The notes below the pieces were generated by a model. The model did not search any database, was not told where the DNA came from, and worked only from the letters and a program-made list of their open reading frames with translations. From positions 37,360 through 101,359 of the forward strand of contig CAZQLY010000003.1 in NCBI GenBank assembly GCA_964594455.1: a stretch of DNA of 64,000 bases, in the 5' to 3' direction. A program made the position numbers and the translations under genes. This DNA is from an uncultured Gammaproteobacteria bacterium. Its GTDB lineage: Bacteria; Patescibacteriota; Patescibacteriia; JAHIZJ01. This document shows, one piece after another, positions 2 to 28,426 of this stretch (position 1 is the first letter of the stretch; every line of letters starts with the position of its first letter).

Positions 2-634
2 CAAGAATTCAGCTTTTTGAGAACTTGGAGGTCGGATAATATTTATCGTTCAGGTTATTTATTAAAGGACTTATTTTGTGAAGTGGCCAGACGAGCTGGT
101 TTTTCTGAAGACTATTTAGCCTATCTTACCTATGATGAGCTTTTAATAATGGCGCGGAGCGGGCGGCCTTCAATTTCCATGAATGAGGTATTGAAAAGGT
201 TGGAATTCTTTGCTTTATGGCATCATCGTGGATATTACCATGTTTTGTCCGGCCGGAACTGGAAAAAACTGTTAGAACCAATTTTTCTTGAAAAGCAAAA
301 AAGGGTTAATCAAATCACAGGCACTCCGGCTCATAAAGGAATCGCCACAGGTAAAGCCAGGCTGATTATGACACCAAACGATTTGGTCAAAATGCGTCGG
401 GGGGAAATTCTAATAACAGTAATGACTTTCCCTCATTTCATTTCAGCTATGGAAAAGGCTAAGGCTTTTGTTACTGATGAGGGGGGAATTCTTTGCCACG
501 CAGCCATTGTCTCACGGGAAATGAAAAAGCCTTGTGTTATTGGCACTAAGAACGCCACTCAGATATTTAAAGATGGTGATTATTTGGAGGTTGACGCTAA
601 TCGGGGTATAGTGAAAAAAATTGAAAAAAAATAA
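2..634 (+). CDS. PEP-utilising-enzyme mobile (phosphohistidine swivel) domain protein, 5'-truncated by the window edge
   Basis: The frame is open from position 2 with no stop before the TTG at 17. The C-terminal ~90 aa follow the swivel-domain pattern (GTPAHKGIATGKARLI...GGILCHAAIVSREMKKPCVIGT...GDYLEVDANRGIV) shared with the downstream paralogs. Confidence 0.6.
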   Translation, partial: QEFSFLRTWRSDNIYRSGYLLKDLFCEVARRAGFSEDYLAYLTYDELLIMARSGRPSISMNEVLKRLEFFALWHHRGYYHVLSGRNWKKLLEPIFLEKQKRVNQITGTPAHKGIATGKARLIMTPNDLVKMRRGEILITVMTFPHFISAMEKAKAFVTDEGGILCHAAIVSREMKKPCVIGTKNATQIFKDGDYLEVDANRGIVKKIEKK

Positions 635-637
635 TTT

Positions 638-2005
638 ATGCCGGATCTTCTAAAGAATAAAAAAGCAACCACCCTTCATTCATCTGCGAAGAAAAAATTC
701 ATTACTTTTGGTAGCCGAGAAACATGCTTGATCCGAGATGAACCCTGGTTTACCTGGTTGGCTAGAAACGGCGTTGAGTTCATTGATCTTCCGAATGGCC
801 GTATTTATGATTATTACGTTAGTGAAAAAGATTATCACCAGGCTTTAGAAAAACTAAGGATCAAGATGGCCCGTAATTGGAGCCAGCATTTAATAAAATA
901 TCATAAAAAGAAACGGGCGGTTATTAAAACCGCTTGTGATTTAAGGTTATCTGTAAAGTCTGGTAACAGGTCCGGAATATTAGACAGGCACAATAAATAC
1001 TTCCAGGCGGCTTATGATTTTAATGAATACATGTGGGGTGCTTGGGCGGTTATTTATCGAGTTGAGCCTGATGTGATGCAAGAAATACCCGAGGAAATTG
1101 GATTAATTGCCAAGCTAGATCAGCCAATCAATTTTATGAAAATGCAGCGTGATGTATTTTGTTTGCCGGCTAATAAATGGCTCCAGGAATATCAGTGGTT
1201 GAAGATGTATAATCCGTACGATCCGGTTTATACGAAAAAAGATTATTTAAAATTTAGAAAAACCTTAAAACGATCTGAGCTGAAAAAGCAATTTAAGGAA
1301 TTGGCAAAAACCAAGACGGATTTTGATAAGCTGATAAGACAAATCAAAAACCGCAGCTTGAAGCAGAAGATGCTGATGATTCACGTTTACGCCTGGCTAA
1401 AAACAGATCGGATTGATGTTTGGCGTAAGTCAATATTTGAATTAAGAGACTTTTATCAATATTTGGCGCAAGAGCTGCCTGGAGCCTCTTTGCGTGATGC
1501 CTGTAATTTGAGCTGCCAGGAAATTCGTGAGTTACTAAACAAAAAAAGGGCTGTATCAGCCAAAGAATTGAAAAAAAGGAGTAAAAATAGTGCGCTGTAT
1601 TATGCTCAAGGCAATAGGTTGAGTATTTTGTATAGTAATGAGAAAATTAGAAAGATAACTAAACAGCTGACTACTCAGGCGTATTCGGAAAACATTACCG
1701 GGGTTTGTGCCAGCCCGGGTTGGGCGGTTGGAAAAGTAAGCATTATTTCTCATTCATCTGATTTACGTAAAGTAAAAAATGGAGATGTGTTTGTCGCCAA
1801 ATATACTTTCCCGACCTATCTGCCAGCTATGGCCAAATGTTCAGCTATTGTTACGGATGACGGTGGGATGACTTCGCACGCTGCCATAGTTGCGCGCGAG
1901 TTAAAAATACCCTGTGTTGTTGGAACCAAGAATGCCACACGGCTGTTAAAGGATAAGGATAGAGTTGAGGTTAAGGCGACAAAAGGTCTAGTGAAAAAGA
2001 GATAA
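638..2005 (+). CDS. PEP-utiliser swivel-domain protein paralog with a divergent N-terminal region
   Basis: 455-aa ORF. The C-terminus reads GGMTSHAAIVARELKIPCVVGTKNATRLLKDKDRVEVKATKGLV, a phosphohistidine-domain signature with the catalytic His retained. The N-terminal ~330 aa are not recognisable by eye. Confidence 0.6.
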   Translation: MPDLLKNKKATTLHSSAKKKFITFGSRETCLIRDEPWFTWLARNGVEFIDLPNGRIYDYYVSEKDYHQALEKLRIKMARNWSQHLIKYHKKKRAVIKTACDLRLSVKSGNRSGILDRHNKYFQAAYDFNEYMWGAWAVIYRVEPDVMQEIPEEIGLIAKLDQPINFMKMQRDVFCLPANKWLQEYQWLKMYNPYDPVYTKKDYLKFRKTLKRSELKKQFKELAKTKTDFDKLIRQIKNRSLKQKMLMIHVYAWLKTDRIDVWRKSIFELRDFYQYLAQELPGASLRDACNLSCQEIRELLNKKRAVSAKELKKRSKNSALYYAQGNRLSILYSNEKIRKITKQLTTQAYSENITGVCASPGWAVGKVSIISHSSDLRKVKNGDVFVAKYTFPTYLPAMAKCSAIVTDDGGMTSHAAIVARELKIPCVVGTKNATRLLKDKDRVEVKATKGLVKKR

Positions 2006-2073
2006 GAACAGTCAGCGGGCCTTCCAGGCTCGCTTTTAGGTAGTTTTTGCATAATTTATGCTATAATTAGCCT

Positions 2074-3606
2074 ATGTCTGGATTAAAGATAATACCAAAA
2101 AGCGACCGACTGCAATGGGGTTCGATGCCGGCTGTGCCATACTTTATTATGCTGGTGGCTTGGGCAGTCATCGGTCGGGCACAAAAGAGATTTAAAAGCA
2201 GCTGGCCGCACGGGCAGGAGCTTTTTTACGATAAGGAATTTGGCGTTTGGTTTAGCTATATGTCCGAAGTTGAGAAGAGCGGTATGAAAGCGGCTAAAAA
2301 GTTTTATCATCATCCTAAACGATTGCGATTGCTAAAAAAAGAATATGCAGCCTGCTTAAAGGTTATCCAGGAAGCGCGTAAATTTGTTCATCAATATTCT
2401 TTACGCAAATTTTCCTATGACGAATTGTTGGATTTGTACCGAACTTTTGTGGATGTGTATGAAAGACTTTGGACAGTAACGATTCAGTCAGAGATTACCG
2501 GTTATGGATTGAATGGATTTTTTACTAGAGAAATCCCAAAACATTTCCCACCCGACCAAGTAGCTGAGGTTTTGTCAATTCTATCAACCAGCGATGACCT
2601 TTCTTTTTATCAAAAAGAGGAGATAGATTTTTATTCTATATTAAAATCACTTAAGCCTAGTAGTTCTGTTTTAAAGAACGATAAAAATTTCCGCAATTGG
2701 CTCAAGAAAAAACATCCTCAGGTTAATTACAAGTTGCAGCAACACGCCAAAGAATACAGCTGGTTGATGAACAACTATAAACGCGGCCAGCCTTTGCCAG
2801 AATCATATTTTTACTCCAGAGCCAGACATGTGTTATCTGAAAACAAGCATTTGGACGAAGAGATTCGTGCTATAAAGAAACAATTTAGGCTGTCATTGAA
2901 CAAAAAGCGTGCCTTGATAAAAAAAGTCCAAGCCGGACTTTTGAAATTTTATGCCCAAAAGGTGATAGGCGATGCTATCGCCTGGCAGGATGACCGCAAG
3001 GGCTGGCAGATGCGAGCTCAAGAAGTGATTTATCGTTTTCTTCAGGAGTTTTCTCGCCGCAAAAAGGTCAGTTTAGATAAATGGTATTATCTTACGCCAA
3101 AAGAAACCTGGGCAGTGCTGGTGGGAGCGCTTCGATTTCCGCATCGAGACGTCAAAGCCAGGCAAAAAAGAATGTTAGTCGTTGTAGATTATAATGATTA
3201 CAGAATTTTTACCGGCCGGGTGGCAGAAAAGTTTTATCGCATTTATCGAACTAACTATAAGAGCGACAAGGACCGTGAAGTAAAAGGAATAGTGGGCTCA
3301 CGCGGCCAGCCGGGCATTTTACGGGCCAAGGTTCAAATATTGCACAGCCCGTCTCAAGTAAAAACTTTCAAAAAAGGTAGGGTGTTGGTGGCCGAATTAA
3401 CCAGCCCGGATTATATTGGTGCGATTCGAAAAGCCAGTGCCATTGTTACAGACCACGGCGGCCTAACTTCACACGCTGCCGTGGTAGCGCGGGAGTTCAA
3501 TATCCCCTGCATAGTTGGTACGAAAAATGCCACTCAGGCTTTTTCCAGCGGCGATTTAATAGAAATTGATTCAAATACTGGTGTTGTTAGAAGGGTTAAA
3601 AAATGA
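2074..3606 (+). CDS. PEP-utiliser swivel-domain protein paralog
   Basis: 510-aa ORF. The C-terminus reads GGLTSHAAVVAREFNIPCIVGTKNATQAFSSGDLIEIDSNTGVV. The stop overlaps the next start (ATGA at 3603). Confidence 0.6.
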   Translation: MSGLKIIPKSDRLQWGSMPAVPYFIMLVAWAVIGRAQKRFKSSWPHGQELFYDKEFGVWFSYMSEVEKSGMKAAKKFYHHPKRLRLLKKEYAACLKVIQEARKFVHQYSLRKFSYDELLDLYRTFVDVYERLWTVTIQSEITGYGLNGFFTREIPKHFPPDQVAEVLSILSTSDDLSFYQKEEIDFYSILKSLKPSSSVLKNDKNFRNWLKKKHPQVNYKLQQHAKEYSWLMNNYKRGQPLPESYFYSRARHVLSENKHLDEEIRAIKKQFRLSLNKKRALIKKVQAGLLKFYAQKVIGDAIAWQDDRKGWQMRAQEVIYRFLQEFSRRKKVSLDKWYYLTPKETWAVLVGALRFPHRDVKARQKRMLVVVDYNDYRIFTGRVAEKFYRIYRTNYKSDKDREVKGIVGSRGQPGILRAKVQILHSPSQVKTFKKGRVLVAELTSPDYIGAIRKASAIVTDHGGLTSHAAVVAREFNIPCIVGTKNATQAFSSGDLIEIDSNTGVVRRVKK

Positions 3607-4682
3607 AAAAAGCAAAGCAACGCCATCCTTATCATATGTTCACCAGAGATTTTTCTCTTTTTACTTCCGAGCTTTGGTATTGGCTGGTGACAGAATCAAT
3701 GCGGGCTGATATCGGCTTTAGTTTAAGTGATCAGATAGTAAATTATGACGGCCGGTCAGCTCAATGCTTTAGATTAAAGGAAGATATGGATGATTTTAAA
3801 AAGCTGGTTATTAATCTCCCAGACTATCATCGGCTTTTCAGCGAAGAAAGTCACCTCGAGTTCCGCTCGATCCTAAAAGAAATAAAAAGGCTGATTGCAA
3901 TCAAGCCCAGAGAGCCTTTTACTTTTAACCCAATTCAAAAGGTAATTCAGCATTGGGAAAAAATATGGGCTATGTTTGTTATTGCTTTTAATTTACCGTC
4001 TGGCTGGGCTGAAGATATCAAGAAGAAAAAAGGTGCCCGAGCGAAAAGAATAATCAATGATTATTATCAGGATCGTGTTTCATCTGAAGGCGCATTTGAA
4101 TTAATGGATGCAACAATTCGAGAATATATCGAACAGTTGTTTAAAAAACACCACATTCCAACCAGGTATTCGCATCTGATAGGTTTTACTGAATTCATGG
4201 ATTTAATGGAATTAGGCATTAAGCCTCCATTAAGCGTTTTGCAGGCCAGGAGTAAGGGTTATGTAACTATTAAAGGCAAGATATATACTGGGAAAGACTT
4301 TGCTGAGCTTTTGAAAAAACATGGCTATATTTATTCCAGAAAAGATGTAAATAAAAACATCAAAGCGTTTGAGGGATTAGCAGCTTACTCATCGGGTATT
4401 GTCAGAGGCAGGGTTAGCCTAGTTTTCAATATTCAGGACATGAAGAAGTTTATAAAAGGAAAAATCATGGTCTCACCGGAAACTTCACCGGTTTTTCTAC
4501 CCGCCATGAAAAAAGCCAAAGCAATAATTACAGATGAAGGTGGTATCACATCCCATGCTTCAATAGCCTCGAGAGAATTCAAAATACCCTGTATTGTCGG
4601 CACTAAGATTGCCACAAAAGCACTAAAGAACGACCAGCAAATAGAAATAGACACTAAAAACGGAATAATCAAAATTATATGA
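3603..4682 (+). CDS. PEP-utiliser swivel-domain protein paralog
   Basis: 359-aa ORF. The C-terminus reads GGITSHASIASREFKIPCIVGTKIATKALKNDQQIEIDTKNGII. It is translationally coupled to both neighbours (overlapping stop and start). Confidence 0.6.
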   Translation: MKKAKQRHPYHMFTRDFSLFTSELWYWLVTESMRADIGFSLSDQIVNYDGRSAQCFRLKEDMDDFKKLVINLPDYHRLFSEESHLEFRSILKEIKRLIAIKPREPFTFNPIQKVIQHWEKIWAMFVIAFNLPSGWAEDIKKKKGARAKRIINDYYQDRVSSEGAFELMDATIREYIEQLFKKHHIPTRYSHLIGFTEFMDLMELGIKPPLSVLQARSKGYVTIKGKIYTGKDFAELLKKHGYIYSRKDVNKNIKAFEGLAAYSSGIVRGRVSLVFNIQDMKKFIKGKIMVSPETSPVFLPAMKKAKAIITDEGGITSHASIASREFKIPCIVGTKIATKALKNDQQIEIDTKNGIIKII

Positions 4683-6109
4683 AATGGACATTTATTGGAA
4701 CCAGAAGAGTAGCAGTACAAGTGGCCGAAGCCTGGTGTTATGGCTGGGGGCAGGCTATGAAAAAAGTTTACGGTGTTTATATTAATTCAACTTTGATATA
4801 CCGTGATGAGAAAAAAACTGATATTTTTGCTGATGCCAAAGATTATAAAAGGTTTTATTCCGGATTGCTAACATTGTTGCAAGATGAAAGATTTGTAAAA
4901 GACTTCCATCCCCAAGCCCAAAAGAGGTTAGAAGAACTTTATTCAGAAATGAAGAAAATTTTAGCAGTTGATTTAAAGAAATTAACCGACAAGCAGTTAC
5001 TAAAGTTGTTTGAGAAAGAAATATTGCCCAGACAAACTCAGTTCTACGTTCGGATGTGGACAGTGTATCAAATCGGTGAACCAATGACTGAAACGATGTC
5101 TAATATTTTGAGAAAAAAATTGAATGACGGAGCACGCGTCACAGAGTTATTGGTTAAATTAGCTGAACCTTTAAGTTTTAACGACGCTATCAGTAATCGT
5201 TATGAGCTTTTGAAGTTAGCAGTTGATGCCAATAAACTTAAACCAGCCGAGTTGGATATGAAATTAAAGCTTCATGCTAAGAAGTTCCAGCATATCCCAG
5301 TATATGATATTGATCATGATCCTTATACTTACGATCATTTCAAACAAGAGTTGAAGGAAATAAAAGACGCGGCCAAGGAACTGAAAAAACTGGAATCAGA
5401 AATAGATCGCAGAAAAAAAGAACACAAAAAGATAATCAGTGAATTAAAGCCCGATCGAAAGTTCTTGGCTCTCATTAACTTTATCAAAGAGAACTCTTTT
5501 CTTCGTGATTACCGTGATTCAATTAGGCAGAAGCTTAACCTGGAATTAAAAAAGTACTATGAGGAATTGGCTGATCGGATGAAGATTACATTAGAAGAAG
5601 TAATAACGTTAGTAAACAGTGAAATAATTGAGTATTTTGGTCAAAACAAAAGATTCCCCCAGGAAGAATTAAATCGCCGCAAGAAATCGTTTTTTCTGAT
5701 AGTGCGAGGAGAAAAAATAAAAATATTGTCTGGAAACGAAGCCTTAAAAAAAGCCGAGCTGGAATTGGGATTAAACAAAGCTTCCAGCAACCAATTGCTC
5801 AGAGGAGTGATAGGCTCAAAAGGTAAGGCAAAAGGTGTAGTCAAAATAGTATACACCAACCGTGATTTAGATAAGGTAAAAGAGGGAGAAATTTTAGTGT
5901 CTAGTATGACTCGACAAGATTTTGTTCCAGCAATGCGCCGAGCTGGGGCTATAGTAACTGACGAGGGCGGAGTAACGTGCCATGCAGCCATTGTTGCCCG
6001 GGAATTAGAAACCCCTTGCGTTATCGGTACCAAAATCGCAACCAAAGTCTTAAAAGATGGCGATCAAGTGGAAGTAGATGCGAATAAAGGAATTGTTAAA
6101 AAGATCTAA
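4679..6109 (+). CDS. PEP-utiliser swivel-domain protein paralog
   Basis: 476-aa ORF. The C-terminus reads GGVTCHAAIVARELETPCVIGTKIATKVLKDGDQVEVDANKGIV. Confidence 0.6.
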   Translation: MKWTFIGTRRVAVQVAEAWCYGWGQAMKKVYGVYINSTLIYRDEKKTDIFADAKDYKRFYSGLLTLLQDERFVKDFHPQAQKRLEELYSEMKKILAVDLKKLTDKQLLKLFEKEILPRQTQFYVRMWTVYQIGEPMTETMSNILRKKLNDGARVTELLVKLAEPLSFNDAISNRYELLKLAVDANKLKPAELDMKLKLHAKKFQHIPVYDIDHDPYTYDHFKQELKEIKDAAKELKKLESEIDRRKKEHKKIISELKPDRKFLALINFIKENSFLRDYRDSIRQKLNLELKKYYEELADRMKITLEEVITLVNSEIIEYFGQNKRFPQEELNRRKKSFFLIVRGEKIKILSGNEALKKAELELGLNKASSNQLLRGVIGSKGKAKGVVKIVYTNRDLDKVKEGEILVSSMTRQDFVPAMRRAGAIVTDEGGVTCHAAIVARELETPCVIGTKIATKVLKDGDQVEVDANKGIVKKI

Positions 6110-6245
6110 ATAATAAATAAATGTTAAAAACCCCAAAACAATTAAACGACAGAACAAAACCTTATACGTTTGGGATTTAGCTGGTACACTTTTTAATGAA
6201 AAATGGAATAATAAGCTCACGGGTTTTGATAGTTTTGATGAATGG

Positions 6246-6791
6246 GTGGAAAACAAACTTGGGAAGAAAATATCTGAAATGTCAGATTATGAATACGAAC
6301 GTGGTTACGAAACACCTTATAAGAAAGGCGCAATGTTTAATTTAAAAACTGTAGATGGATTTAGAGAAGTGCTTGATAAGACGCATAATAACGAGGCTTT
6401 TTCTAGCGGTAATCCAGAACAGCTTCTATGTCGGGCTAAGTACTTAAATCCGAAAATTGGCTTCAATCTGCTTAAATATTTCCTAGCCATAAACTCACCT
6501 TTTGACTATGGAACAAGCAATAAGAAAACAGCAGAAGTATATAAAAAATATCTGTTAAAAAAATACAAACAGGGATATCGGACTATTATTTATACAGAAG
6601 ATAAAGCTAAATACATTAGCTCGTTTAAAAAAGCCGCTGCCAATGTTAAAATCAAACACCCAAATTTTAATTATCACATTTATCATATATTAAGAAACAA
6701 AAAAGGCATTAAAAGAAAAAATGGCTATTTTGAAATTGGTAATTTGTGGGATTTACTAAAAAACGAAAAGAAGTTGAATAATATCATATGA
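6246..6791 (+). CDS. hypothetical protein; the annotated GTG start is doubtful and there may be an upstream extension through a frameshift (HAD-like DLAGTL motif upstream)
   Basis: 181-aa ORF. The same frame stays open and coding-like back to about 6117 (..KTLYVWDLAGTLFNEKWNN..) but has no start codon there. An ATG at 6121 lies in the +1 frame (MLKTPKQLNDRTKPYTFGI*), and the two frames meet at a GGG run at 6170-6172. Confidence 0.4.
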   Translation: MENKLGKKISEMSDYEYERGYETPYKKGAMFNLKTVDGFREVLDKTHNNEAFSSGNPEQLLCRAKYLNPKIGFNLLKYFLAINSPFDYGTSNKKTAEVYKKYLLKKYKQGYRTIIYTEDKAKYISSFKKAAANVKIKHPNFNYHIYHILRNKKGIKRKNGYFEIGNLWDLLKNEKKLNNII

Positions 6792-7543
6792 ATAATTTAG
6801 CAATTAAAAAACAAAAAACTGTTAAATTTGGATTAGCCGAGTGGTTTCTGACAGGTGGTATGCTTTTTGCCGTTTTGGTATCTTATTTAATATTCAGCGT
6901 ACCAACAATTTCCGATTTTATCGAAATAGTATGGGATAAGGTTGTGGAATATAGTTATGATTTAGGGTATCTGGGGGCATTCTTTATGTCTTGGTTAGGC
7001 AATTCCACGATTGTAATCCCTTTTCCTTATACGGCGTTGGTATTTTTATTCGGAGCTAGCGGCTTAAACCCAATGGCTCTAGGAATACTGGCAGGTGTAG
7101 GCGCAACGTTGGGCGAGTCGATTTCCTATATTGTTGGGTTCTTGGGTTATAAAGTTACTAAGGACAAATATAGGAAAAACATGAGCGCCTTGAGGAAATT
7201 AATAGACACCAGACCAAAGTTTGCCATATTTTTCTTTTTTCTAATCGGCGCCACCCCAATTCCCGATGATGTATTCATAATTCCGTTGGGATTGATTCGC
7301 TATAATGTTTTCAGGGCGATTATTCCATTTGCTATAGGTAAAATAGTTTTGACTTCAATAATCGCCTACATGGGATATTTTGCTGGTGATGCCACTACTA
7401 TCGGATTTCTAGAGGACCAAAGGGAATGGGTCAACGTCATGTCGCTGGTTGGAGTTATTATAGTAATTTACGCAATATTGAAGATTAATTGGGAAAAGTT
7501 AAGCGAGCGATTAATAAAAGATACGGGTTCACAACAATCATGA
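6788..7543 (+). CDS. DedA/SNARE-associated (TVP38/TMEM64) family membrane protein
   Basis: 251-aa multi-TM protein with the characteristic ..GATPIPDDVFIIPLGLIRY.. region. Its start overlaps the upstream stop. Confidence 0.5.
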   Translation: MNNLAIKKQKTVKFGLAEWFLTGGMLFAVLVSYLIFSVPTISDFIEIVWDKVVEYSYDLGYLGAFFMSWLGNSTIVIPFPYTALVFLFGASGLNPMALGILAGVGATLGESISYIVGFLGYKVTKDKYRKNMSALRKLIDTRPKFAIFFFFLIGATPIPDDVFIIPLGLIRYNVFRAIIPFAIGKIVLTSIIAYMGYFAGDATTIGFLEDQREWVNVMSLVGVIIVIYAILKINWEKLSERLIKDTGSQQS

Positions 7544-8127
7544 CGATCTACCAGGGGTTAAAAATAATTGACCAAGCAAAATTACCCCATCCCGAATGGC
7601 AGTTCGTTAGGACTTCAAAAGATATTAAAAATTTAAATAAGGTCAAAGACTATTGCGGTTGGACGATCAGAACAGCCAAGGTGGATGGAGCGCCTTGGCA
7701 GAACCTATACGTGAATTGGTTGCCCAAGAAAAAGGTTTCAGTCAAAGTAGATGAGCTTCAGGCTCAACATCCGGGCCGGGCCATGTTTGTAATTTACCCT
7801 TCCTGGGAATGGAAGAAAGGTGGCACTATTTTGGTAGAAAAGGAGCGAGTTGTCATAAAGGCCACCCGAGGTGAAATCGTGAATTTAATGCGCTACGGCA
7901 AAATAAGTGCCAGCTACGTTTTTCAAAAAGGGAAATTGGTTGAGGTAAACGGTGATAAGAATTTTTTATCTGTTTCAGAGATAAAAAAAGTTATTCAAGC
8001 CCAAGAACGTATTAAGAAAAAAAACGTGATTTTGGAATGGGGCATTACGACTCAGAATAAATTCATATTTTACCGCATAGAAGACTTAAAAGAAGCAGCT
8101 AAGTTATTAATTGAGAAATATTCATGA
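7540..8127 (+). CDS. hypothetical protein, possibly a minimal ATP-grasp-like partner of the downstream swivel-domain gene
   Basis: The probable start is the ATG at 7540, which overlaps the upstream stop (ATGA). Its own stop overlaps the next start at 8124. A weak resemblance of GGTILVEKERVVIKATRGEIVNLMRYGKISASYVF to an ATP-grasp lid is by eye only. Confidence 0.35.
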   Translation: MTIYQGLKIIDQAKLPHPEWQFVRTSKDIKNLNKVKDYCGWTIRTAKVDGAPWQNLYVNWLPKKKVSVKVDELQAQHPGRAMFVIYPSWEWKKGGTILVEKERVVIKATRGEIVNLMRYGKISASYVFQKGKLVEVNGDKNFLSVSEIKKVIQAQERIKKKNVILEWGITTQNKFIFYRIEDLKEAAKLLIEKYS

Positions 8128-9596
8128 TAGTAAAATTTCGAAGCATTAACTGGGTCTACGAATGGGAGAGGTCGATTAATTTTTACCACGGTCATTTGAT
8201 AGCCCGTTTGTGGAACCAGCATAGTCTAGAGCGCTGGCCGACAAATTTTTATTGGCCCAAGAGAAGACAATACTTGTTGTTAAATAAAAGGGATACTGGT
8301 TTTGCCTACGTTGATATAAAAGAGGTGAATCGACTTTCGGATAATTATTTGGACAAAATTACAAAGAAAGATATTGCCGGACGATATGTGAAACAGGCAG
8401 ACACTCTAGTTCGAAGCGTCATCCGATTTGTCTCCCAGCACAAAAAAGCTGATCTGAAAAAGATGGATCGAAAAGATTTTCTTAAGTTATTTGGTGATTA
8501 TTTCTATTACTATTTTTCATTGACTGGCCTGGTAGGGGAAATCCGAACTGTCAACTGGACCGGCATTGAAGTCCTTAAGAGTAAAATTAAAAGAAGTTTT
8601 AATAATGACAGACAGCTTCAGAAAGCAGTGAATATTCTGACGGCTACACCGCGCGAAAGCTTTTTAAACAAATCGGAAAAAGATTTTGTAAAAACACTAG
8701 AAAAAATAAAGAACAATCCTAACCAAAGCCAGAAACTGACAACCGACTATTGGATGAAATATCGGTGGTTTCCTTGTGGCTTTAAAGATGAAGCTCCATT
8801 AACATATCTAGAAACCAAGAAGAAAATAACTAAAGGTTTAAGAGAATATAAGCAGTTGTGCAAAAAAATTAAGCAGGATGAAAAGTTCAGGGCTAATTTG
8901 AAAAAGCAAAGAACCGCGTTATTAAAAAAGATCAAGCCGGATCTGGGAACTAAAAGAATAATTGATTTTTTATCCCAGTCCACTTACTATAAGGATTTTA
9001 CCCGCTTTATGATTAATCGTTGGGGTCACTATGAAATGATCCCAGTTATGAAAGAAGCTGCTAAGCGTCTCGGCATATCATATAAACAGTTGGGTTATTT
9101 AAGTTTTGAAGAAATAGCCGATGGCCTTAGGGGCGAAGCTGTTCCCAGAACTGAAATAAGAAAAAGGCAGCTAGCTTGGGCTTGCGTGGTCATAAACGAT
9201 AGATTTAGGGTGTTGTCTGGTAGTCAGGCCGTTAAGTTAATCGGGACTTTTGATAAAGCAACGACAAGGATAAAAGAATTAAGCGGCGCTACAGCAAATC
9301 CAGGTAAAGCATCAGGCGAAGTGGTAATTGTCAGGAATCTGAGGGATGCCCGTAAAGCAAAAACGCAGGGCAAGATTTTTGTTACCACTATGACTACGCC
9401 CGAGCTAATGCCCTATCTGAGGAATGTCAAAGCTATAATTACAGACGAGGGTGGAATTACTTGCCACGCTGCTATTGTTTCAAGAGAGTTGGGTATTCCA
9501 TGCGTGATTGGGACTGCGCAAGGAACTAGAGTTCTAAAGAATGGTGATCGAGTAGAGGTTAATGCAACGGATGGTGTTGTGAAAAAAATTAAATAA
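8124..9596 (+). CDS. PEP-utiliser swivel-domain protein paralog
   Basis: 490-aa ORF. The C-terminus reads GGITCHAAIVSRELGIPCVIGTAQGTRVLKNGDRVEVNATDGVV. Confidence 0.6.
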   Translation: MIVKFRSINWVYEWERSINFYHGHLIARLWNQHSLERWPTNFYWPKRRQYLLLNKRDTGFAYVDIKEVNRLSDNYLDKITKKDIAGRYVKQADTLVRSVIRFVSQHKKADLKKMDRKDFLKLFGDYFYYYFSLTGLVGEIRTVNWTGIEVLKSKIKRSFNNDRQLQKAVNILTATPRESFLNKSEKDFVKTLEKIKNNPNQSQKLTTDYWMKYRWFPCGFKDEAPLTYLETKKKITKGLREYKQLCKKIKQDEKFRANLKKQRTALLKKIKPDLGTKRIIDFLSQSTYYKDFTRFMINRWGHYEMIPVMKEAAKRLGISYKQLGYLSFEEIADGLRGEAVPRTEIRKRQLAWACVVINDRFRVLSGSQAVKLIGTFDKATTRIKELSGATANPGKASGEVVIVRNLRDARKAKTQGKIFVTTMTTPELMPYLRNVKAIITDEGGITCHAAIVSRELGIPCVIGTAQGTRVLKNGDRVEVNATDGVVKKIK

Positions 9597-9696
9597 AGCA
9601 CCTCGTTTGTGGCATCCCGAACTTGTTTAAGGATCTCGCAGAGAACTAGATTTTTCATTGAGATACTGAAATAAATTAACCATGACAGTTTGTTGT

Positions 9697-9737
9697 AAAA
9701 AAAGAGCCGGCGGTTCCACTAATGGAACACGCCGGCT
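9697..9737 (-). terminator. rho-independent terminator for the minus-strand gene ending at 9769
   Basis: A 13-bp GC-rich hairpin (AGCCGGCGGTTCC-ACTAAT-GGAACaCGCCGGCT) is followed on the minus strand by a T-run (complement of AAAAAAAG at 9697-9704). Confidence 0.6.
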
Positions 9738-9768
9738 TTGGGGTGGCGGGAGCGACCGCTTGGACAGG

Positions 9769-10383
9769 CTAGCCTTCGGGGTAGCCCTGGAAGACGACCT
9801 GCGACTCGAGCAGCCGAGTCTCAAACGTCTCAGTGTCAACTTCGACGACGTACTCGACAATCCCGGCCAAGCCGAGACGGTGAGTGATGCTGGGATCCAG
9901 CACAGCCGTCTCGCTGCAGGGCGAATGGCTACTGACCAGGACATCGAGTCCGGTCTCGTCGTACTGGGAAGCCAGGATGCAGACCCACTTGAAAAGGCAC
10001 TCGCGGAAGCGAGCGGACATCTGCCGCGTCGGCGGATGGACAGCGAACCAGAGACCCATGGTCTCAGGAGTGCCGGCGGCCACGATAGCCTGGATGCGCT
10101 TGAGAGCTTCAATCATCGGAGCGTCCGGATTCTCAGCGTAGAGATAGCCGAACCCCGGATCCTTCCTGGTCGTGAGGCTCTTGAGGCCCAGGGCCTGCAG
10201 AGCAGTGCGGTTGGTCTGGAATGCCCGGTACATGTCCGAACAAAGACCGAGTACGAACTCAATACCAGCGAAATAGCGGCGTGAGGATTCAGCGACTTGC
10301 TTCTCGCCCCTGGGCGTCAACTCGTCACCATCCTTCTCGCCATGCCGCTGCACCTTGAAACGAACAACCATTTTCTTCCCCAT
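9769..10383 (-). CDS. histidine phosphatase superfamily (phosphoglycerate mutase-like) protein
   Basis: The N-terminus VVRFKVQRHGEKDGDELTPRGEKQ carries the RHG catalytic motif. The gene sits in a GC-rich island. Confidence 0.5.
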   Translation of the reverse strand: MGKKMVVRFKVQRHGEKDGDELTPRGEKQVAESSRRYFAGIEFVLGLCSDMYRAFQTNRTALQALGLKSLTTRKDPGFGYLYAENPDAPMIEALKRIQAIVAAGTPETMGLWFAVHPPTRQMSARFRECLFKWVCILASQYDETGLDVLVSSHSPCSETAVLDPSITHRLGLAGIVEYVVEVDTETFETRLLESQVVFQGYPEG

Positions 10384-10464
10384 CAGAAATCCCCTCCTGT
10401 TTCGGTCCTAGGTTATAGCCCAAGGGCGGTTAACTTCTCCCTTGTTTTCTCAAAAGAACCGTGT

Positions 10465-10493
10465 ATATTAGCACAGTTTTGGGGCGTTGTCAA
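10465..10493 (-). promoter_or_regulatory. sigma70-type promoter (TTGACA-N17-TAATAT) on the minus strand
   Basis: The minus strand reads TTGACAacgccccaaaactgtgcTAATAT, which is a perfect -35, a 17-nt spacer and a near-consensus -10. It lies upstream of the histidine-phosphatase gene. Confidence 0.55.
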
Positions 10494-10504
10494 GGGGTAA
10501 ATAA

Positions 10505-10535
10505 AAAGACGAGATTGGCTTATCTCGTCAAAAAT
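10505..10535 (-). terminator. rho-independent terminator for the gene 10540..11052
   Basis: A perfect 8-bp stem GACGAGAT-TGGCTT-ATCTCGTC is followed on the minus strand by TTTTTATTT. Confidence 0.55.
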
Positions 10536-10539
10536 GGGC

Positions 10540-11052
10540 TTATGAATCCGGTTTTTCTTCGCCCCAACTGCGCGACCCGGAGCCACCGATTAGGCCGATA
10601 TACCAGGTATCGCTGTTGAAACCCAACTGGAGATCAGCTTCGGGTAGCGGGATTCGGGGCAGGAAACTGGGTAGGGTGTTGTTTAGCACCCGGAAAAGGC
10701 TGTACTGTATCCCGAAATCCAGTTCCGTACCAGACTCGTTCATGAATCTGAGACCCAGCCCTCCAAATACACTGAGCGACTTCATGACTGGTACGTAGCC
10801 GTAGCCACCGATCAGACCCTCGGTTTCGTCTGCCCAGGATCCAACCGAGACAAAAGGCCCGATCTGAGCCCGTGAAACGTTGAGTAAGTAGTGCAGCTGA
10901 CCCATAAGCAGCATGGCATCACTACCCTCTTCGTTCTCGGTAATTCCGACGTAGGCCCTGGCACCAAAGTTCTCCGGCGCCTTGGACCAAACCGAAGACG
11001 GAACAGCCAGCCAGATTGCTAGCACCACACCAATAACAAGCATCCTTTTCAT
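10540..11052 (-). CDS. secreted beta-rich protein resembling an outer-membrane beta-barrel (OMP_b-brl/OmpW-like) domain
   Basis: A signal peptide (MKRMLVIGVVLAIWLAVPSSVWS) is followed by alternating hydrophobic and Gly/Tyr-rich beta-strand-like segments. The gene is GC-rich relative to its flanks. Confidence 0.35.
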   Translation of the reverse strand: MKRMLVIGVVLAIWLAVPSSVWSKAPENFGARAYVGITENEEGSDAMLLMGQLHYLLNVSRAQIGPFVSVGSWADETEGLIGGYGYVPVMKSLSVFGGLGLRFMNESGTELDFGIQYSLFRVLNNTLPSFLPRIPLPEADLQLGFNSDTWYIGLIGGSGSRSWGEEKPDS

Positions 11053-11144
11053 AGCCTGGAAACCTCCCTGCGGATGTGAATGGTTAAAGAACAGCTGATA
11101 ATCGTATCATATGATATCTTAAAGCGCAAAAGACTATTAGATTG

Positions 11145-11174
11145 TTGTAAAACCAGGCCTCAATATGATATAAT
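11145..11174 (+). promoter_or_regulatory. promoter with an extended -10 (TGaTATAAT) upstream of secD
   Basis: TTGTAA at 11145-11150, an 18-nt spacer and TG-n-TATAAT at 11166-11174. The start codon lies only ~9 nt downstream and there is no Shine-Dalgarno sequence, so the mRNA may be leaderless or nearly so. Confidence 0.4.
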
Positions 11175-11182
11175 GCCTTGGT

Positions 11183-12850
11183 ATGACCCCACGTAAAAAG
11201 GTTTGGATAACGTTTATTTTTATAGTGATTCTGGCTGGATTAGCCGGGATTGTTGACTATCCCAAAGGACCGGACATAAAGATTAATGATTATTCCAAAG
11301 AATTAAAGGTTCATTTGGGGCTTGATTTGCAGGGTGGGTCCCATTTGGTTTATGAGGCTGATGTCTCAAATATTCCTGAAGCTGACCGTTCTTCATCGTT
11401 GGATGGAGTACGTGATGTAATCGAAAGGCGGGTCAATGCTTTTGGAGTATCGGAACCAGTGGTTCAAACAAACAAAGTAGGAGATAGCTGGCGGGTAATA
11501 GTGGAGTTGGCCGGCGTTTTTGATATAAACGAAGCAATCAAGCAAATTGGTGAGACGCCGCTTTTGGAATTCCGAGAGCAGGCCGAACCTGAGCCTTATA
11601 CCGAAGAGCAATTAGCTGCCATTCGTGCTTTGAACGAAGAAGCCAAGAATAAAGCTCAAGGAATACTTGAGCAAGCATTGCAGCCTGATGCTGATTTTGC
11701 CGCCTTAGCCCAGGAGAATTCAGAAGATACCGGTAGCGCCGAAAACGGCGGTGACTTAGACTTCTTTCCCCGAGGAGTAATGATAACAGAATTTGAAAAT
11801 GTCGTGTTTGATGAGATGCAAGTGGGCGAAGTATATCCGGAATTAGTCCAGACAGATTTTGGATATCATATTATTAAAAAAACAGACGAACGTGAAACAG
11901 GCGAAGGTGATGGCAAGTTGTTGGAAGCCCGGGCGAGCCACATATTAATCCGAACTCAGTCTGAAGAACCTACGGCCTCCACGCAGTTTGTGAATACTGA
12001 TTTGTCAGGCAAGCAGTTAACGCGAGCCGATGTCCAATTTGATCCCAATACTGGAGCTCCAGAAGTAACCCTGAAATTTGATGATGAGGGCAAGAATTTG
12101 TTTGCTGAAATTACCAAGAAAAATGTTGGAAAAATAGTAGCCATTTATCTTGACGGTACGCCTATCAGTCAGCCGGTGGTTCAGGATGAAATAACGTCTG
12201 GTGAAGCAGTTATTTCAGGATCCTTTACCTTGGAAGAGGCTAAAACCCTTGCCCAGCGTTTGAACTCCGGTGCCCTACCAGTACCCATTACCTTAATAAA
12301 CCAGCAGAATGTCGGTGCATCATTGGGTAAAGTTTCCGTAGAGAAGAGTTTATTTGCGGGCTTAATCGGGTTATTCTTTGTGGCTATATTTATGATCGTT
12401 TATTATCGTTTGCCTGGTATTTTGTCGGTTGTTGCCTTGGCAATGTATGCCTTGGTAGTATTAGCAATTTTCAAAATTTGGCCGATTACTTTAACCCTGG
12501 CGGGCGTGGCAGGATTTATCTTGTCAGTGGGAATGGCAGTTGATGCTAACGTCCTTATTTTTGAAAGGATCAAAGAGGAATTAGCCCTGGGCAAGCCTCT
12601 GGGCAGCGCTATTGAAGAAGGGTTTAAACGGGCTTGGCTTTCGATTCGCGATTCCAATGTTTCCAGTTTGATAACTTGCTTTATTCTGATGTGGTTCGGT
12701 AGCAGCTTGATCAAGGGCTTTGCTGTTACTTTAGGCCTCGGTATTATCGTCAGTATGTTTTCAGCAATTACTATAACCCGAACTTTCCTGAGGCTGATAG
12801 CCAGTGAATGGCTAGCTAAGCATTTAGGCTGGATGGGAGTAAAAAGATAA
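11183..12850 (+). CDS. secD: protein translocase subunit SecD with an embedded PpiC-type (parvulin) peptidyl-prolyl isomerase domain
   Basis: The N-terminal TM helix plus LDLQGGSHLVYEAD, and the C-terminal 6-TM region, are SecD-like. Residues ~150-240 (..ALAQENSEDTGSAENGGDLDFFPRGVMITEFENVVFDEMQVGEVYPELVQTDFGYHIIKK..) match the parvulin rotamase signature. Confidence 0.75.
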   Translation: MTPRKKVWITFIFIVILAGLAGIVDYPKGPDIKINDYSKELKVHLGLDLQGGSHLVYEADVSNIPEADRSSSLDGVRDVIERRVNAFGVSEPVVQTNKVGDSWRVIVELAGVFDINEAIKQIGETPLLEFREQAEPEPYTEEQLAAIRALNEEAKNKAQGILEQALQPDADFAALAQENSEDTGSAENGGDLDFFPRGVMITEFENVVFDEMQVGEVYPELVQTDFGYHIIKKTDERETGEGDGKLLEARASHILIRTQSEEPTASTQFVNTDLSGKQLTRADVQFDPNTGAPEVTLKFDDEGKNLFAEITKKNVGKIVAIYLDGTPISQPVVQDEITSGEAVISGSFTLEEAKTLAQRLNSGALPVPITLINQQNVGASLGKVSVEKSLFAGLIGLFFVAIFMIVYYRLPGILSVVALAMYALVVLAIFKIWPITLTLAGVAGFILSVGMAVDANVLIFERIKEELALGKPLGSAIEEGFKRAWLSIRDSNVSSLITCFILMWFGSSLIKGFAVTLGLGIIVSMFSAITITRTFLRLIASEWLAKHLGWMGVKR

Positions 12851-22830: not shown

Positions 22831-25044
22831 ATGAAGTTCATGGACAGCGTTTCGTCGATCGCCAATATGCGCGTGTCGGGTTTTGTGATTTTGACGGTGG
22901 TTTTTGGTTTGGCGCTTTCGCTTGCGTTCAAGACCATGAACTGGTTGCTGGTGCTTGTTGTTATGGCAGCGGTGACCTATGTCTTCTATCGGTACCGAGA
23001 GAGATTGCTCTTCCAGGTGACCGATCGGATGTTCAAGTACTACTACCTGGTGGGATTTTTGATCATGACAACCCTGTACATGCTACTTGTGTTCAGGATG
23101 ATCAGAGATCCAATTTCCAGCTGGCTGGCAGTGATCATCTACTTTCTTTCGTGGACGATCCTGCTGGTCTATGCTGGAAAAGCTCAGATTGGTGCTACCT
23201 TCATCAAAGAGCCTGGTGCGATGTTGATTCAACGAGGGGGCATGTTCCTCCGCATCGCCTGGGTGAAGAAGGGGCATCGGATGTTGACTAACCAAGCAGC
23301 TCAACGCTTAAACGCACTGGCGTTCCTTTTCAATCCCACGGTTGAGGATCATAAGAAACGGATCTTCGTGAAGTGGCTGTTGTTTCAACTCGAGGATGCC
23401 CTGGACGAAAAAGCCCACCTTATTCGGGGATGGGATGTGGTGACTACCTTTGGAGGTGATCCATTCGTTTCTGAGTCAGCGCGTGAGCGGACGGCGGAAG
23501 GTTGTATTACTCTGTCAACACCTGAAGATGTGTACAATATGATTCGAAGATCACCTCAAGAAGGTGAGAAAACGATTTCTCACCAACCACCGTACTCACG
23601 TCCTCGGTTCAGCCATATGGCCAAAAGGCCTAGCAGTGAAATAGATGAAATTCTGAGGGCTCTATCGGTCGTTTCGGGCAGTAGCCGGGCAGAGTTTCAA
23701 GTTCACAGCCAGCTGCTGACAAGGGACGAGAAGAGGGAGGGTCGTAAAATACCCAACCAGAATAAGTATGTGTTCAATCCTGAGTTCACAGTTGGCTACC
23801 GTGACCGCTTTGCCCAATATGACATCATGACTGAAACTGAAATCGCCCATGAGTCTGGATTGACGCCCGGAATCATCAAATGGTGCATGGCGGATGTGGC
23901 AGAACAGCAGAAGCCGCGCAAGGGCGTCTTCGGCGGTTTGCGCGTGATCGGATTCCCTTGGGATTCAGTTATGACACATCAGCTGGTAGTTGAAACCTGG
24001 TCTGAGGTAACGGATGTAACCGAGGGGGGCGCCGCTTACAAGGTGGAGAAGGTCCCTCGGGAATTCCAGAGGATTGGCCTGGGCCGTGAACAGATGAAGC
24101 TTTTCGTCAAACGAGCAGAAACTGCTGACGGCTATGCTGTTGATTTCTACGTAGTCATCTTCTTGCATTTGCGCAACGTGTATAAGGCGATGATTGATGT
24201 GGACGACTGGCATCAGTGGCTAGCCAATGTCATTGTTGCCAAGATCCGAGAGCTGACTCGTCGTCTGCCTATCCACGCCGCGATTGATGCCAAGGAGCAC
24301 GTTTCCGAGTGCATCAGACGCGGTGTTCACGGTGAAGAGTACACTCTGGTCCCGGAGCTCATCAGCCCGGTACCTGACGGATCCAGTGAGGACATCCAGA
24401 AAGAAGGGCGTCCGAAGTACCGCATACACGTCGTGCCCATCCGCGATCTCAGGAAACTGGAGCGTATGCTATATGCTGCGGTTGGAGATAACGATGGAGC
24501 TGAGAAGAAGGCCAATACCAAGGACCAAGACAGTATCAAGGATGTTGCTGTCGACGAGACTCTCCTGGAGAGCATTCTGTTCAAGGCCGGAATCGTGGTT
24601 GATGGGATGGGCGTCAAGGACGTTATTCCCTCAGACACCGAGGCTAAGCAGTTCATCGAGGCCTTGCCCAGCGCGATTCAGGAAGCGCAGATTCGCATCA
24701 GGCAGGGAATCGGTGAAGCTGGCAGAATCGAACGGGAAATCGCTGCGCTGGCTAGCAAGGGCGAGAATGTCGCTCAGATCTTCCAGCTGATTGAGACAAC
24801 CAAGAGTGTTCCATCTGGGAGCACGGTTGTTCTTGGTGGCGGAGGCGGATCGATCGACCAAGCCCTGTTGGCCCAGCTGTTGCGAGATCGGAGCAAGCCA
24901 ACCGGCAAAACCGGAGGATCGGGTGAAACCGATGCTCCGGAATCAGTAAGCGCAGATGCAAAAGGCTCCGGCGATATAGCCGGATCAGACCGTGAGAGCG
25001 GGAAACGTCCTGAACGTTCCCGTTCTACACGGAAACGATCTTAG
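22831..25044 (+). CDS. large membrane-anchored hypothetical protein (N-terminal TM helices, ~600-aa soluble region, Gly-rich and basic disordered C-terminus); possibly flotillin/SPFH-like
   Basis: 737-aa ORF in a GC-rich island with strong AGGAGG ribosome-binding sites. The C-terminal ..IRIRQGIGEAGRIEREIAALASKGENVAQIFQLIETTKSVPSGSTVVLGGGGGS.. resembles the end of bacterial flotillins; this is a weak impression only. Confidence 0.4.
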   Translation: MKFMDSVSSIANMRVSGFVILTVVFGLALSLAFKTMNWLLVLVVMAAVTYVFYRYRERLLFQVTDRMFKYYYLVGFLIMTTLYMLLVFRMIRDPISSWLAVIIYFLSWTILLVYAGKAQIGATFIKEPGAMLIQRGGMFLRIAWVKKGHRMLTNQAAQRLNALAFLFNPTVEDHKKRIFVKWLLFQLEDALDEKAHLIRGWDVVTTFGGDPFVSESARERTAEGCITLSTPEDVYNMIRRSPQEGEKTISHQPPYSRPRFSHMAKRPSSEIDEILRALSVVSGSSRAEFQVHSQLLTRDEKREGRKIPNQNKYVFNPEFTVGYRDRFAQYDIMTETEIAHESGLTPGIIKWCMADVAEQQKPRKGVFGGLRVIGFPWDSVMTHQLVVETWSEVTDVTEGGAAYKVEKVPREFQRIGLGREQMKLFVKRAETADGYAVDFYVVIFLHLRNVYKAMIDVDDWHQWLANVIVAKIRELTRRLPIHAAIDAKEHVSECIRRGVHGEEYTLVPELISPVPDGSSEDIQKEGRPKYRIHVVPIRDLRKLERMLYAAVGDNDGAEKKANTKDQDSIKDVAVDETLLESILFKAGIVVDGMGVKDVIPSDTEAKQFIEALPSAIQEAQIRIRQGIGEAGRIEREIAALASKGENVAQIFQLIETTKSVPSGSTVVLGGGGGSIDQALLAQLLRDRSKPTGKTGGSGETDAPESVSADAKGSGDIAGSDRESGKRPERSRSTRKRS

Positions 25045-25068
25045 GACGATCTCGCTCCTGAAGTTTGA

Positions 25069-25107
25069 GGCGGGACCCACGCGGCATTTGTCGTAACGGG
25101 TCCCGCC
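25069..25107 (+). promoter_or_regulatory. intergenic GC-rich hairpin (10-12 bp stem) with no T-run
   Basis: GGCGGGACCC-(19 nt)-GGGTCCCGCC lies between the two island genes and immediately before AAAGGAG-ATG. It may be a processing or attenuation structure. Confidence 0.35.
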
Positions 25108-25130
25108 CTCATCAACCAAAGGAGTGAATC

Positions 25131-28192: not shown

Positions 28193-28426
28193 ATGAGAAA
28201 ATACATTTTCACCGTAGTTTTGATAATAACCCATATTTGTATTTTAATCAAGTGTTTGACAGAAAAAGAATAATTGCTAAAATAAGCACGTTGATTTAAC
28301 TATCAGCGGCTCATTTTATTGTCTTGGTTTGAGGACAGCGGAAGTACCGTTGTGGACTAATCAGGCGCTTTCAGCCAATAAGTAATTCCTCAATAGGAAG
28401 AGGCTTATGGGTTGGAGGAGGAAATA

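Follow-up and report, generated by a model that had tools for sequence, protein, structure and literature searches.

We analysed a 64,000-nucleotide stretch of contig CAZQLY010000003.1 (assembly GCA_964594455.1, Patescibacteriota), hereafter the window, which contains at 9640-11060 a GC-rich segment, island A, with two genes on the minus strand. One codes for a protein of the histidine phosphatase superfamily and the other for a protein with a signal peptide that is predicted to fold as a beta-barrel. An earlier note, made from the sequence alone, had seen in island A either horizontally acquired cargo or part of a compositionally distinct accessory compartment of the genome, and had raised the concern of a chimeric assembly. 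Taken together, our results are best explained if island A is a vertically inherited, clade-specific accessory module of two genes and not recently imported DNA, a reading that we consider probable. The two genes are the following, GC3 being the GC content at third codon positions:

9769..10383, minus strand: histidine phosphatase gene (204 aa; His_Phos_1, branch 1; GC 0.60, GC3 0.74)
10540..11052, minus strand: beta-barrel gene (170 aa; signal peptide at residues 1-23; GC 0.54, GC3 0.61)

The module is found at the same locus in related lineages

The locus has the order sigma-secF-secD, followed divergently by the barrel gene and then the phosphatase gene, and after these by VTT and/or phosphoenolpyruvate (PEP)-utilizer genes. 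We found the module at this position in four related lineages from other samples (SecD 75-81% identical), which were all that could be examined:

L001/L002 (GCA_016294925.1, GCA_016294955.1): barrel gene present, phosphatase gene present
L003 (GCA_028717285.1): barrel gene absent, phosphatase gene present
L012/L013 (GCA_030699685.1 and a Logan assembly): barrel gene present, phosphatase gene present, 24 nt downstream of the barrel gene
L014/L015/L005 (GCA_018824475.1, a GTDB representative and a Logan assembly): barrel gene present, phosphatase gene present in L014; L005 and L015 end at a contig edge

Each of these loci is 100% identical in at least two assemblies, except that of L003, which is a single contig. 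An independent Logan contig (L004) is 100% identical to window positions 9050-11987 and spans both boundaries of island A, which speaks against a chimeric assembly. The earlier note had named orthologues at the same locus in relatives as the observation that would speak against its proposal, and they were there in all four lineages. The barrel gene occurs in a narrower clade only, and wherever it is present the phosphatase gene follows directly downstream of it. The module as a whole is absent only at SecD identities of 59% or less: neither was found by tblastn in the distant relatives (SecD 53-59% identical), and upstream of secD in L006 and L007 there is tRNA-Lys or secA instead of the module.

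We found no tRNA within 16 kb of island A, no integrase-like open reading frame (ORF), and no relatives of its genes in phage and plasmid collections (tblastn) or in a scan of viral contigs. No donor lineage emerged, as the homologues all belong to the same Patescibacteria group or to unbinned metagenome contigs with the same neighbourhood, and none from a donor was present among 5.8 and 1.8 billion sequences. An imperfect 14-nt direct repeat, AGWTTGTTGTAAAA, brackets island A exactly, and its two copies are the only ones in the window, where 0.11 would be expected (a post hoc figure):

9687..9700, plus strand: left copy, AGTTTGTTGTAAAA, 14 nt
11139..11152, plus strand: right copy, AGATTGTTGTAAAA, overlapping the -35 of the secD promoter

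The repeat is missing from the related loci, which have no repeats of their own, and it is probably a chance match or a motif associated with promoters or terminators. Of four features that define a horizontally acquired island, island A shows one, compositional deviation, and lacks the other three. Like a classical genomic island, it combines a sharp compositional deviation with orphan-like accessory genes and with promoters and terminators of its own. Unlike one, it is GC-richer and not AT-richer than the genome, it is syntenic in all relatives examined, its deviation persists through the saturation of synonymous sites, and it has no integrase, tRNA or conserved repeats. A recent transfer into this genome, or a chimera with DNA of a GC-richer organism, would account for the sharp contrast in composition and for the repeat that brackets the island here. 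Nevertheless, such an event is extremely improbable given the same genes at the same locus in four other lineages, the identical independent assembly over both junctions, the promoter of native type, the lack of mobility genes and of phage, plasmid or viral-contig relatives, and the absence of the bracketing repeat from the relatives. The idea of recently acquired cargo is therefore not upheld.

In L003, the lineage without the barrel gene, an AT-rich ORF of 138 aa (L003 4638-5054, GC3 0.31) adjoins the phosphatase gene, and its N-terminus resembles by eye an IS200/RAYT-type Y1 transposase (no family search was made).

The GC excess outlasts the saturation of synonymous sites

Island A is clearly richer in GC than its flanks, as had been noted before: its GC is 0.547, against a mean of 0.419 (sd 0.041) for all 1421-bp windows of the 64 kb. 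This level is reached in 5 of 1252 such windows, three of which are island A itself and two island B near 23.8 kb. The high GC is limited to the two coding regions. Measured over 60 bp, GC is 0.27 at 9640, rises to 0.57-0.67 over most of the phosphatase coding sequence (9700-10360), falls to 0.42-0.47 in the spacer (10360-10539), is 0.50-0.60 over the barrel coding sequence (10540-11020) and drops to 0.30 at 11080. The GC3 of both genes exceeds that of about 40 background genes (0.29-0.47, mostly 0.34-0.43); the genes flanking the island have 0.35-0.42. We estimated the genome GC implied by each codon position from codon-position regressions that reportedly stem from Lawrence and Ochman (1997). 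Positions 1, 2 and 3 of the phosphatase gene alike imply a genome of 57-63% GC and those of the barrel gene one of 49-61%, and neither gene shows a lag at position 3. The amino acid composition is shifted too, R/(K+R) being 0.61-0.64 in the island proteins versus 0.37 in the background. G- and C-ending codons are both enriched, and the share of A at third positions goes down to 0.05.

Across five lineages the island proteins have diverged far more than their neighbours. Pairwise identity is 72-81% for SecD and 61-77% for SecF, Sigma and TraG, against 29-59% for the barrel protein and 27-54% for the phosphatase. The five lineages are roughly equidistant, and every tree places L012 outermost, in keeping with vertical descent and faster evolution of the island proteins. 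At four-fold sites of conserved residues, identity in the flanks is 0.24-0.38 where composition alone predicts 0.23-0.28, and in the island genes 0.29-0.39 where it predicts 0.24-0.35; synonymous sites between the lineages are nearly saturated.

The GC excess of the phosphatase gene has nevertheless persisted. Flank GC3 in the five lineages is 0.34, 0.38, 0.43, 0.53 and 0.54, and that of the phosphatase gene 0.66, 0.74, 0.68, 0.66 and 0.64, respectively. Three distant metagenome loci, with 29-34% protein identity, have phosphatase GC3 of 0.80, 0.78 and 0.96 next to neighbours of 0.60, 0.47 and 0.61. In all eight lineages the phosphatase gene lies above the highest neighbour gene, with a mean offset of +0.25 (range 0.10-0.40). 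The smallest offset belongs to the L012 copy, which has lost its catalytic residues (see below), and this single case hints at a tie between the GC excess and function. The barrel gene behaves differently: its GC3 (0.61, 0.60, 0.44, 0.70) is always above the background yet tracks it (r 0.88, n=4). From the residual four-fold identity, a rough two-state decay of our own, which ignores rate heterogeneity, gives about 30% of an initial GC deviation retained in each lineage. By this rough measure, such retention could just explain the barrel gene and not the phosphatase gene. The excess persists while synonymous sites saturate and backgrounds drift, and therefore a gene-specific force appears to hold the GC high. 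Selection on the mRNA or DNA sequence could act as such a force, as could GC-biased gene conversion, which would fit the pairing of fast evolution with high GC.

Island A would thus be a compositional island without recent transfer, which callers of islands based on GC or tetranucleotides would label as transferred despite its synteny in the clade. The GC3 excess of the phosphatase gene, seen against backgrounds of 0.34-0.61 and with saturated synonymous sites, is hard to explain by mutation bias alone, and the locus is a convenient natural case in which to test whether selection on GC or biased gene conversion acts in reduced genomes.

The phosphatase is a divergent member of its superfamily

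The identification of the phosphatase as an RHG-motif protein, already made in the earlier note, stands. Pfam family PF00300 (His_Phos_1) matches the 204-aa protein with 23.4 bits (cut-off 21.7, E 5e-5), residues 15-74 being aligned, and the protein carries R13-H14-G15 near its N-terminus, LTPRGEKQ, R61 in RAFQT and H152 in SSHSP. We judged the conservation of these motifs in an alignment of five orthologues. The RHG motif is kept in four of the five and can also be read in L016 and L018. R61 and H152, assigned by motif position and not by structure as the second arginine and the second histidine of the phosphate pocket, align with columns conserved in four of the five. PF00300 also matches at E <0.001 the orthologues from L001, L003, L014, L016 and L018, and four of these five exceed its threshold; L014, with 19.7 bits, falls under 21.7. 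The L012 orthologue (L012 10496-11074, GCA_030699685.1) has no PF00300 match. Its ORF is intact, and RHG, RAxxT and SHS are replaced by QPG, LSGAT and APW, so that by its sequence it looks like either a pseudo-enzyme or a decaying gene.

A profile of the family matched solved structures in the PDB (3e9c, E 8e-6; 6nru, 3e-3; 3r7a, 3e-3), which are of TIGAR, CobC and phosphoglycerate mutase. With TIGAR, CobC and cofactor-dependent phosphoglycerate mutase the 204-aa protein shares the RHG...LTxxGxxQ...RAxxT core, although the alignment covers only the N-terminal 70-80 residues. It does not match the cofactor-dependent phosphoglycerate mutases at equivalog level, where the model for these (dPGM) gave 13.6 bits against a cut-off of 316; this weak match was the sole one in NCBIfam, where no SixA family model matched at E<=1. 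We take the protein, from these motifs and profile matches, to be a new, divergent member of the known histidine phosphatase superfamily.

The genes next to the phosphatase gene suggest what it may act on. Upstream of island A in the window lie the following:

within 17..9596, plus strand: array of PEP-utilizer paralogs at 17-634, 638-2005, 2074-3606, 3603-4682, 4679-6109 and 8124-9596, with PF00391 in all six
among these paralogs, plus strand: 6246-6791 (181 aa, no Pfam match), 6788-7543 (VTT/DedA) and an unknown 212-aa ORF

Rifampin-phosphotransferase-like PEP-utilizer proteins work via a phosphohistidine. Each of the paralogs has a C-terminal swivel phosphohistidine domain and lacks an ATP-grasp domain, and as a group they are similar to the substrate-binding and swivel portions of rifampin phosphotransferase, PigC and RedH. 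Residues 179-487 of the protein encoded at 8124-9596 align to residues 545-864 of rifampin phosphotransferase, that is, to the substrate-binding and swivel phosphohistidine domains, and NCBIfam gave partial RPH, PigC and RedH matches for it. The number of paralogs in the fetched loci of relatives is 2 to 5, and in all eight lineages, including the three distant metagenome loci, the phosphatase gene has a PEP-utilizer (PF00391) or PPDK_N gene as its neighbour. The branch-1 protein SixA of E. coli, likewise a small cytoplasmic RHG-superfamily protein, removes the phosphohistidine phosphoryl from NPr and Ndk (PMC7948535, PMC6282199, PMC12934123). SixA thus acts on the phosphohistidine of phosphotransfer proteins, and the 204-aa phosphatase is encoded beside phosphohistidine-domain proteins in all lineages seen. 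Unlike SixA, it has a family-specific C-terminal half (LDP...AGIVxYVVEVD...VVFQGYPE), and one of its orthologues, that of L012, is by sequence catalytically dead. The comparison is one of mechanism by analogy and not of family membership.

Because of the PEP-utilizer neighbourhood and the precedent of SixA, we tentatively propose, at somewhat short of an even chance, that the phosphatase either strips the phosphoryl group from the phosphohistidine of the enzymes encoded next to it, and so resets them, or hydrolyses the phosphorylated product that these enzymes make. The protein would belong to branch 1 of the histidine phosphatases, act in the cytoplasm and have an intact RHG set, with its gene expressed from a conserved near-consensus promoter and ended by a strong terminator, and by removing the phosphoryl from the PEP-utilizer phosphohistidine or product it would reset or limit phosphotransfer, as SixA does on NPr and Ndk. 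Such a link between phosphatase and PEP-utilizers would bear on an abundant, uncharacterised protein family of the Patescibacteria.

In L017 the phosphatase homologue is closely preceded on its upstream side by a second small GC-rich gene (L017 7423-7920; 165 aa, GC3 0.71). The product of this second gene, which has no Pfam match, carries an N-terminal LITHG that resembles a degenerate RHG.

The second gene encodes a predicted beta-barrel

The 170-aa protein starts with a signal-peptide-like segment, MKRMLVIGVVLAIWLAVPSSVWS followed by KA. Read from the sequence without a dedicated predictor, it has the parts of a Sec signal peptide, namely a basic n-region, a hydrophobic h-region of about 14 residues and a VWS/KA site, and such a start is common to all five members of the family. 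These five are the only distinct members among about 15 billion predicted proteins. The 170-aa protein had no Pfam or NCBIfam match at E<=1, outer-membrane protein families included, and no sequence relative was found in the PDB with the profile of the family. AlphaFold2, run on an alignment of four sequences, gave a model with a predicted local distance difference score (pLDDT) of 74 and a predicted TM-score (pTM) of 0.67; an earlier run on two sequences (pLDDT 51) was too weak and was not used. The model is a closed antiparallel barrel of eight long strands joined by turns of 2-6 residues, with one 21-residue loop (118-138) that contains a short helix. The Pro-rich stretch P128-G144 of this loop is the most conserved part of the family, with the invariant motif P132..P135.P137.A139-D140...G144, and this loop, on the side of the barrel where both termini lie, is likely the functional site. 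When the sequence was read against the strand map of the model, without coordinates, one face of the strands was hydrophobic or aromatic and the other rich in Gly, Ser, Thr, Gln and acidic residues or Arg, without Lys. This predicted pattern is suggestive of a membrane barrel with a polar interior.

The earlier note had likened the protein to an outer-membrane beta-barrel with a signal peptide; the predicted fold and the signal peptide agree with this, whereas a place in a known family of outer-membrane proteins does not follow, given the lack of profile matches and of the C-terminal aromatic signal. Identity to the N-domains of OmpA and OprF and to PagL, NspA, OmpW and OmpX is only 11-15%. 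Classical outer-membrane proteins have long, variable loops on the side opposite to the termini, while the loops of the 170-aa barrel are 2-6 residues long except for the conserved one of 21 residues on the termini side. They also end in an aromatic residue, whereas here the last strand (TWYIGLIGG) does not form the aromatic beta-signal and is followed by a 13-residue Ser/Gly/acidic tail. A de novo designed transmembrane beta-barrel (PDB 6x9z) is a further close comparison; it is artificial and evolutionarily unrelated, and the natural barrel differs from it by the extra helix and Pro-rich loop at residues 118-138. On the strength of the model, we regard the protein as a member of a putative new orphan family, whose fold is well known but whose host is an unexpected one.

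Where such a barrel would reside is the next question. Described bacteria of the Candidate Phyla Radiation (CPR) are monoderm (PMC8871954), and all cultivated Patescibacteria are episymbionts, according to one preprint (bioRxiv 10.1101/2024.11.25.624915). The window itself encodes LytR-CpsA-Psr and WxLIP_PGBD+LysM proteins (47277-48842 and 57276-59012), wall genes typical of monoderms. These wall genes, together with the monoderm CPR cell and episymbiosis, therefore make a classical outer-membrane location doubtful. Alternatives are a lipid-embedded surface protein, a barrel inserted into the host's membrane, or a soluble one that binds a ligand. Under our reading of the module, the protein would be a Sec-exported, minimal eight-stranded barrel whose functional site is the Pro-rich loop on the side with both termini, and its probable place would be either a lipid layer on the surface of the cell or the host organism's membrane. 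An OmpA/PagL-like barrel beside wall genes of Gram-positive type bears on the question of the CPR cell envelope and its interface with the host.

Two repeat proteins of the representative library, P0006 and P0008 (639 and 855 aa), contain three copies of a motif, VNIPAGDLNLGLANDKFYIGSTGG, that is similar to the barrel family's best-conserved stretch, IPLPEADLQLGFNSDTWYIGLIGG; the likeness may be due to chance or to a shared structural motif. We rejected P0006 and P0008 as relatives of the barrel protein, since the match is limited to a short IP-x-x-DL-x-LG...YIG motif and the resemblance stays at the level of the motif.

Promoters, leader and terminators

The regulatory elements of the module and of the adjacent secD gene are these:

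10465..10493, minus strand: sigma-70-type phosphatase promoter, TTGACA-N17-(TGC)TAATAT with TG upstream of the -10, from a promoter scan
10384..10464, minus strand: phosphatase 5' leader of about 80 nt, with the Shine-Dalgarno sequence AGGAGGGG at 10391-10398
9697..9737, minus strand: phosphatase intrinsic terminator, a 14-bp interrupted GC-rich hairpin and then seven U
10508..10529, minus strand: barrel-gene intrinsic terminator, an 8-bp stem with a 6-nt loop and then UUUUUAUUU (folding energy dG -11.3, z -5.5)
11063..11069, minus strand: Shine-Dalgarno sequence AGGGAGG of the barrel gene
11145-11174, plus strand: divergent secD promoter, TTGTAA-N18-TATAAT, in the spacer 11053-11182 shared with the barrel gene
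Promoter and leader regions of phosphatase orthologues: window 10384-10493, minus strand; L001 10571-10697; L003 3726-3847; L014 9308-9419; L016 4224-4371; L018 78-304

The TTGACA-N17-TAATAT promoter described in the earlier note is present, and its hexamers and spacing recur at 38570-38598 on the plus strand. It is not, however, a hallmark of the GC-rich islands: TTGACA-N16-18-TANNNT occurs 11 times in the window versus 2.2 expected, and also precedes ordinary genes and a tRNA, so this type of consensus promoter is not special to them. A TTGAC(A/T)-N17-TAnnnT promoter stands before the orthologue in L001, L003, L014, L016, L017 and L018, which makes seven lineages with the window, and in four lineages of the clade the -10 is TAWTAT. 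All phosphatase orthologues have leaders of 65-195 nt, and the lineages have in common the motifs TGTTC..TTTGA just past the -10 and GGNAG.AGTT(T)AA. We discarded a structured leader RNA: RNAalifold gave no consensus on four leaders, the leader of the window had a z-score of -1.5, and there was no Rfam match. The textbook terminators that had been attributed to both genes were borne out by folding. The region 9690-9772 on the minus strand (83 nt), which contains that of the phosphatase gene, folds at dG -31.1 kcal/mol (z -4.5), and none of 200 shuffles was as stable.

Weighing the explanations of the GC excess

The most serious competitor to maintenance of the GC by a gene-specific force is an ancient acquisition by the ancestor of the clade from a donor of about 55-65% GC, with the excess as a fading relic of incomplete amelioration; we think it unlikely, though worth keeping in view, above all where the barrel gene is concerned. 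Reports describe genomic islands and gene transfer as frequent in Patescibacteria (PMC12455944), the module is absent beside secD in L006 and L007, codon positions and amino acid composition are like those of a genome of 50-63% GC, and the GC3 of the barrel gene follows the background with a constant offset. Against this stand the near-saturated four-fold sites, since with about 30% retention the starting value of the phosphatase gene (+0.33 in the window) would come out above 100% GC. Its GC3 is moreover independent of the background within the clade and reaches 0.78-0.96 in far lineages beside PEP-utilizers, position 3 shows no amelioration lag, the promoters are of native type, and the large sequence collections yielded no donor homologue. 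Improbable, in our judgement, is that the GC-rich codons reflect very high expression, through translational selection or an effect linked to transcription. The near-consensus phosphatase promoter with an extended -10, conserved in seven lineages, speaks for it, and promoters of TTGACN type precede 4 of 8 GC3-rich genes and 4 of 41 other genes of the window (Fisher p=0.017, post hoc). Strong expression normally goes with slow evolution, however, and the island proteins evolve two to four times faster than the flanks; the shift extends to positions 1 and 2 and to Arg/Lys and raises both G- and C-ending codons, which goes beyond synonymous selection; and GC is not raised in the ordinary genes that have a promoter of this type (13872, 18989, 53744).

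We give hardly any credence to the view that the stretch is non-coding, or that an overlapping antisense gene or structured RNA forces the high GC. Two long ORFs do cover the phosphatase gene (9682-10284, plus strand, 200 aa; 9627-10112, minus strand in another frame, 161 aa), and its mRNA is more stable than synonymous shuffles in five lineages. Yet the catalytic motifs are conserved at the protein level, Pfam matches the catalytically intact orthologues, and no alternative frame is open in all orthologues. In the five alternative frames of seven phosphatase and four barrel orthologues the counts of stops equal those of synonymous shuffles, and we rejected an overlapping or antisense gene and regard the two ORFs as by-products of GC-rich codons. 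Searching Rfam at gathering thresholds over the whole window returned five tRNAs only, and at E<=1 over 9500-11250 nothing. Strand or replication orientation was likewise set aside as a cause: islands B-E, unlike island A with its minus-strand genes, lie on the plus strand, and the cumulative GC skew climbs along nearly the whole window.

Several observations count against our own reading of a vertically inherited module with actively maintained GC. The force behind the excess is so far a candidate. Structure in the mRNA did not stand out as its cause, as the folding z-scores of the phosphatase mRNA in five lineages (-3.5, -2.0, -1.9, -4.9, -3.8) are suggestive but overlap those of ordinary genes (+1.7 to -3.5). 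The tracking of the background by the barrel GC3 also fits slow amelioration after an old transfer. As for function, the Pfam match of the phosphatase is barely over threshold and covers the N-terminal half only, its single sequence matches no solved structure, and the apparent loss of catalytic residues in L012 would make catalysis dispensable in at least one lineage. The proposed substrate draws on gene neighbourhood only, and shared descent leaves about four independent observations.

Other GC-rich genes in the window

At least four more stretches of the window bear the signature of island A (22831-26558, 28412-29293, 38612-39636 and 44542-45252), with these genes:

22831-25044, 25131-26558, 28412-29293, 38612-38992, 39118-39636 and 44542-45252: six GC-rich genes like those of island A

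Their GC3 is 0.53-0.62 and their R/(K+R) 0.51-0.78, and their codon positions imply about 50-60% GC (mostly 47-60%). Pfam found weak or small domains (Band_7/SPFH, KhpA-type KH, NUDIX) or none, and most of the six stand alone, each with its own promoter and terminator. Of the two descriptions offered in the earlier note, a compositionally distinct accessory compartment suits the islands better than cargo. The gene content is mostly ordinary, and the locus is of moderate interest for its lasting gene-specific GC excess, the link between phosphatase and PEP-utilizers, and the barrel that resembles outer-membrane proteins.

A more speculative reading, which we put forward as doubtful, would join these observations. 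These Patescibacteria would keep self-contained cassettes, in each of which a consensus promoter and a leader precede a GC-rich coding sequence that ends in a strong terminator. Selection acting on the transcript or the DNA, or else GC-biased gene conversion at hot spots of recombination, would actively uphold the GC of the cassettes against the drift of the genome towards AT. The one at secDF would pair a phosphatase that resets phosphohistidines with an eight-stranded, self-inserting barrel, independent of BAM, which a monoderm episymbiont would place in a lipid layer, perhaps that of its host's outer membrane.

Just upstream of the promoter of island D, a short GC-rich ORF at 38330-38493 encodes a hydrophobic peptide of about 54 aa (MSVREKVLIPAFALLLVF...), with its own Shine-Dalgarno sequence and a terminator after it.

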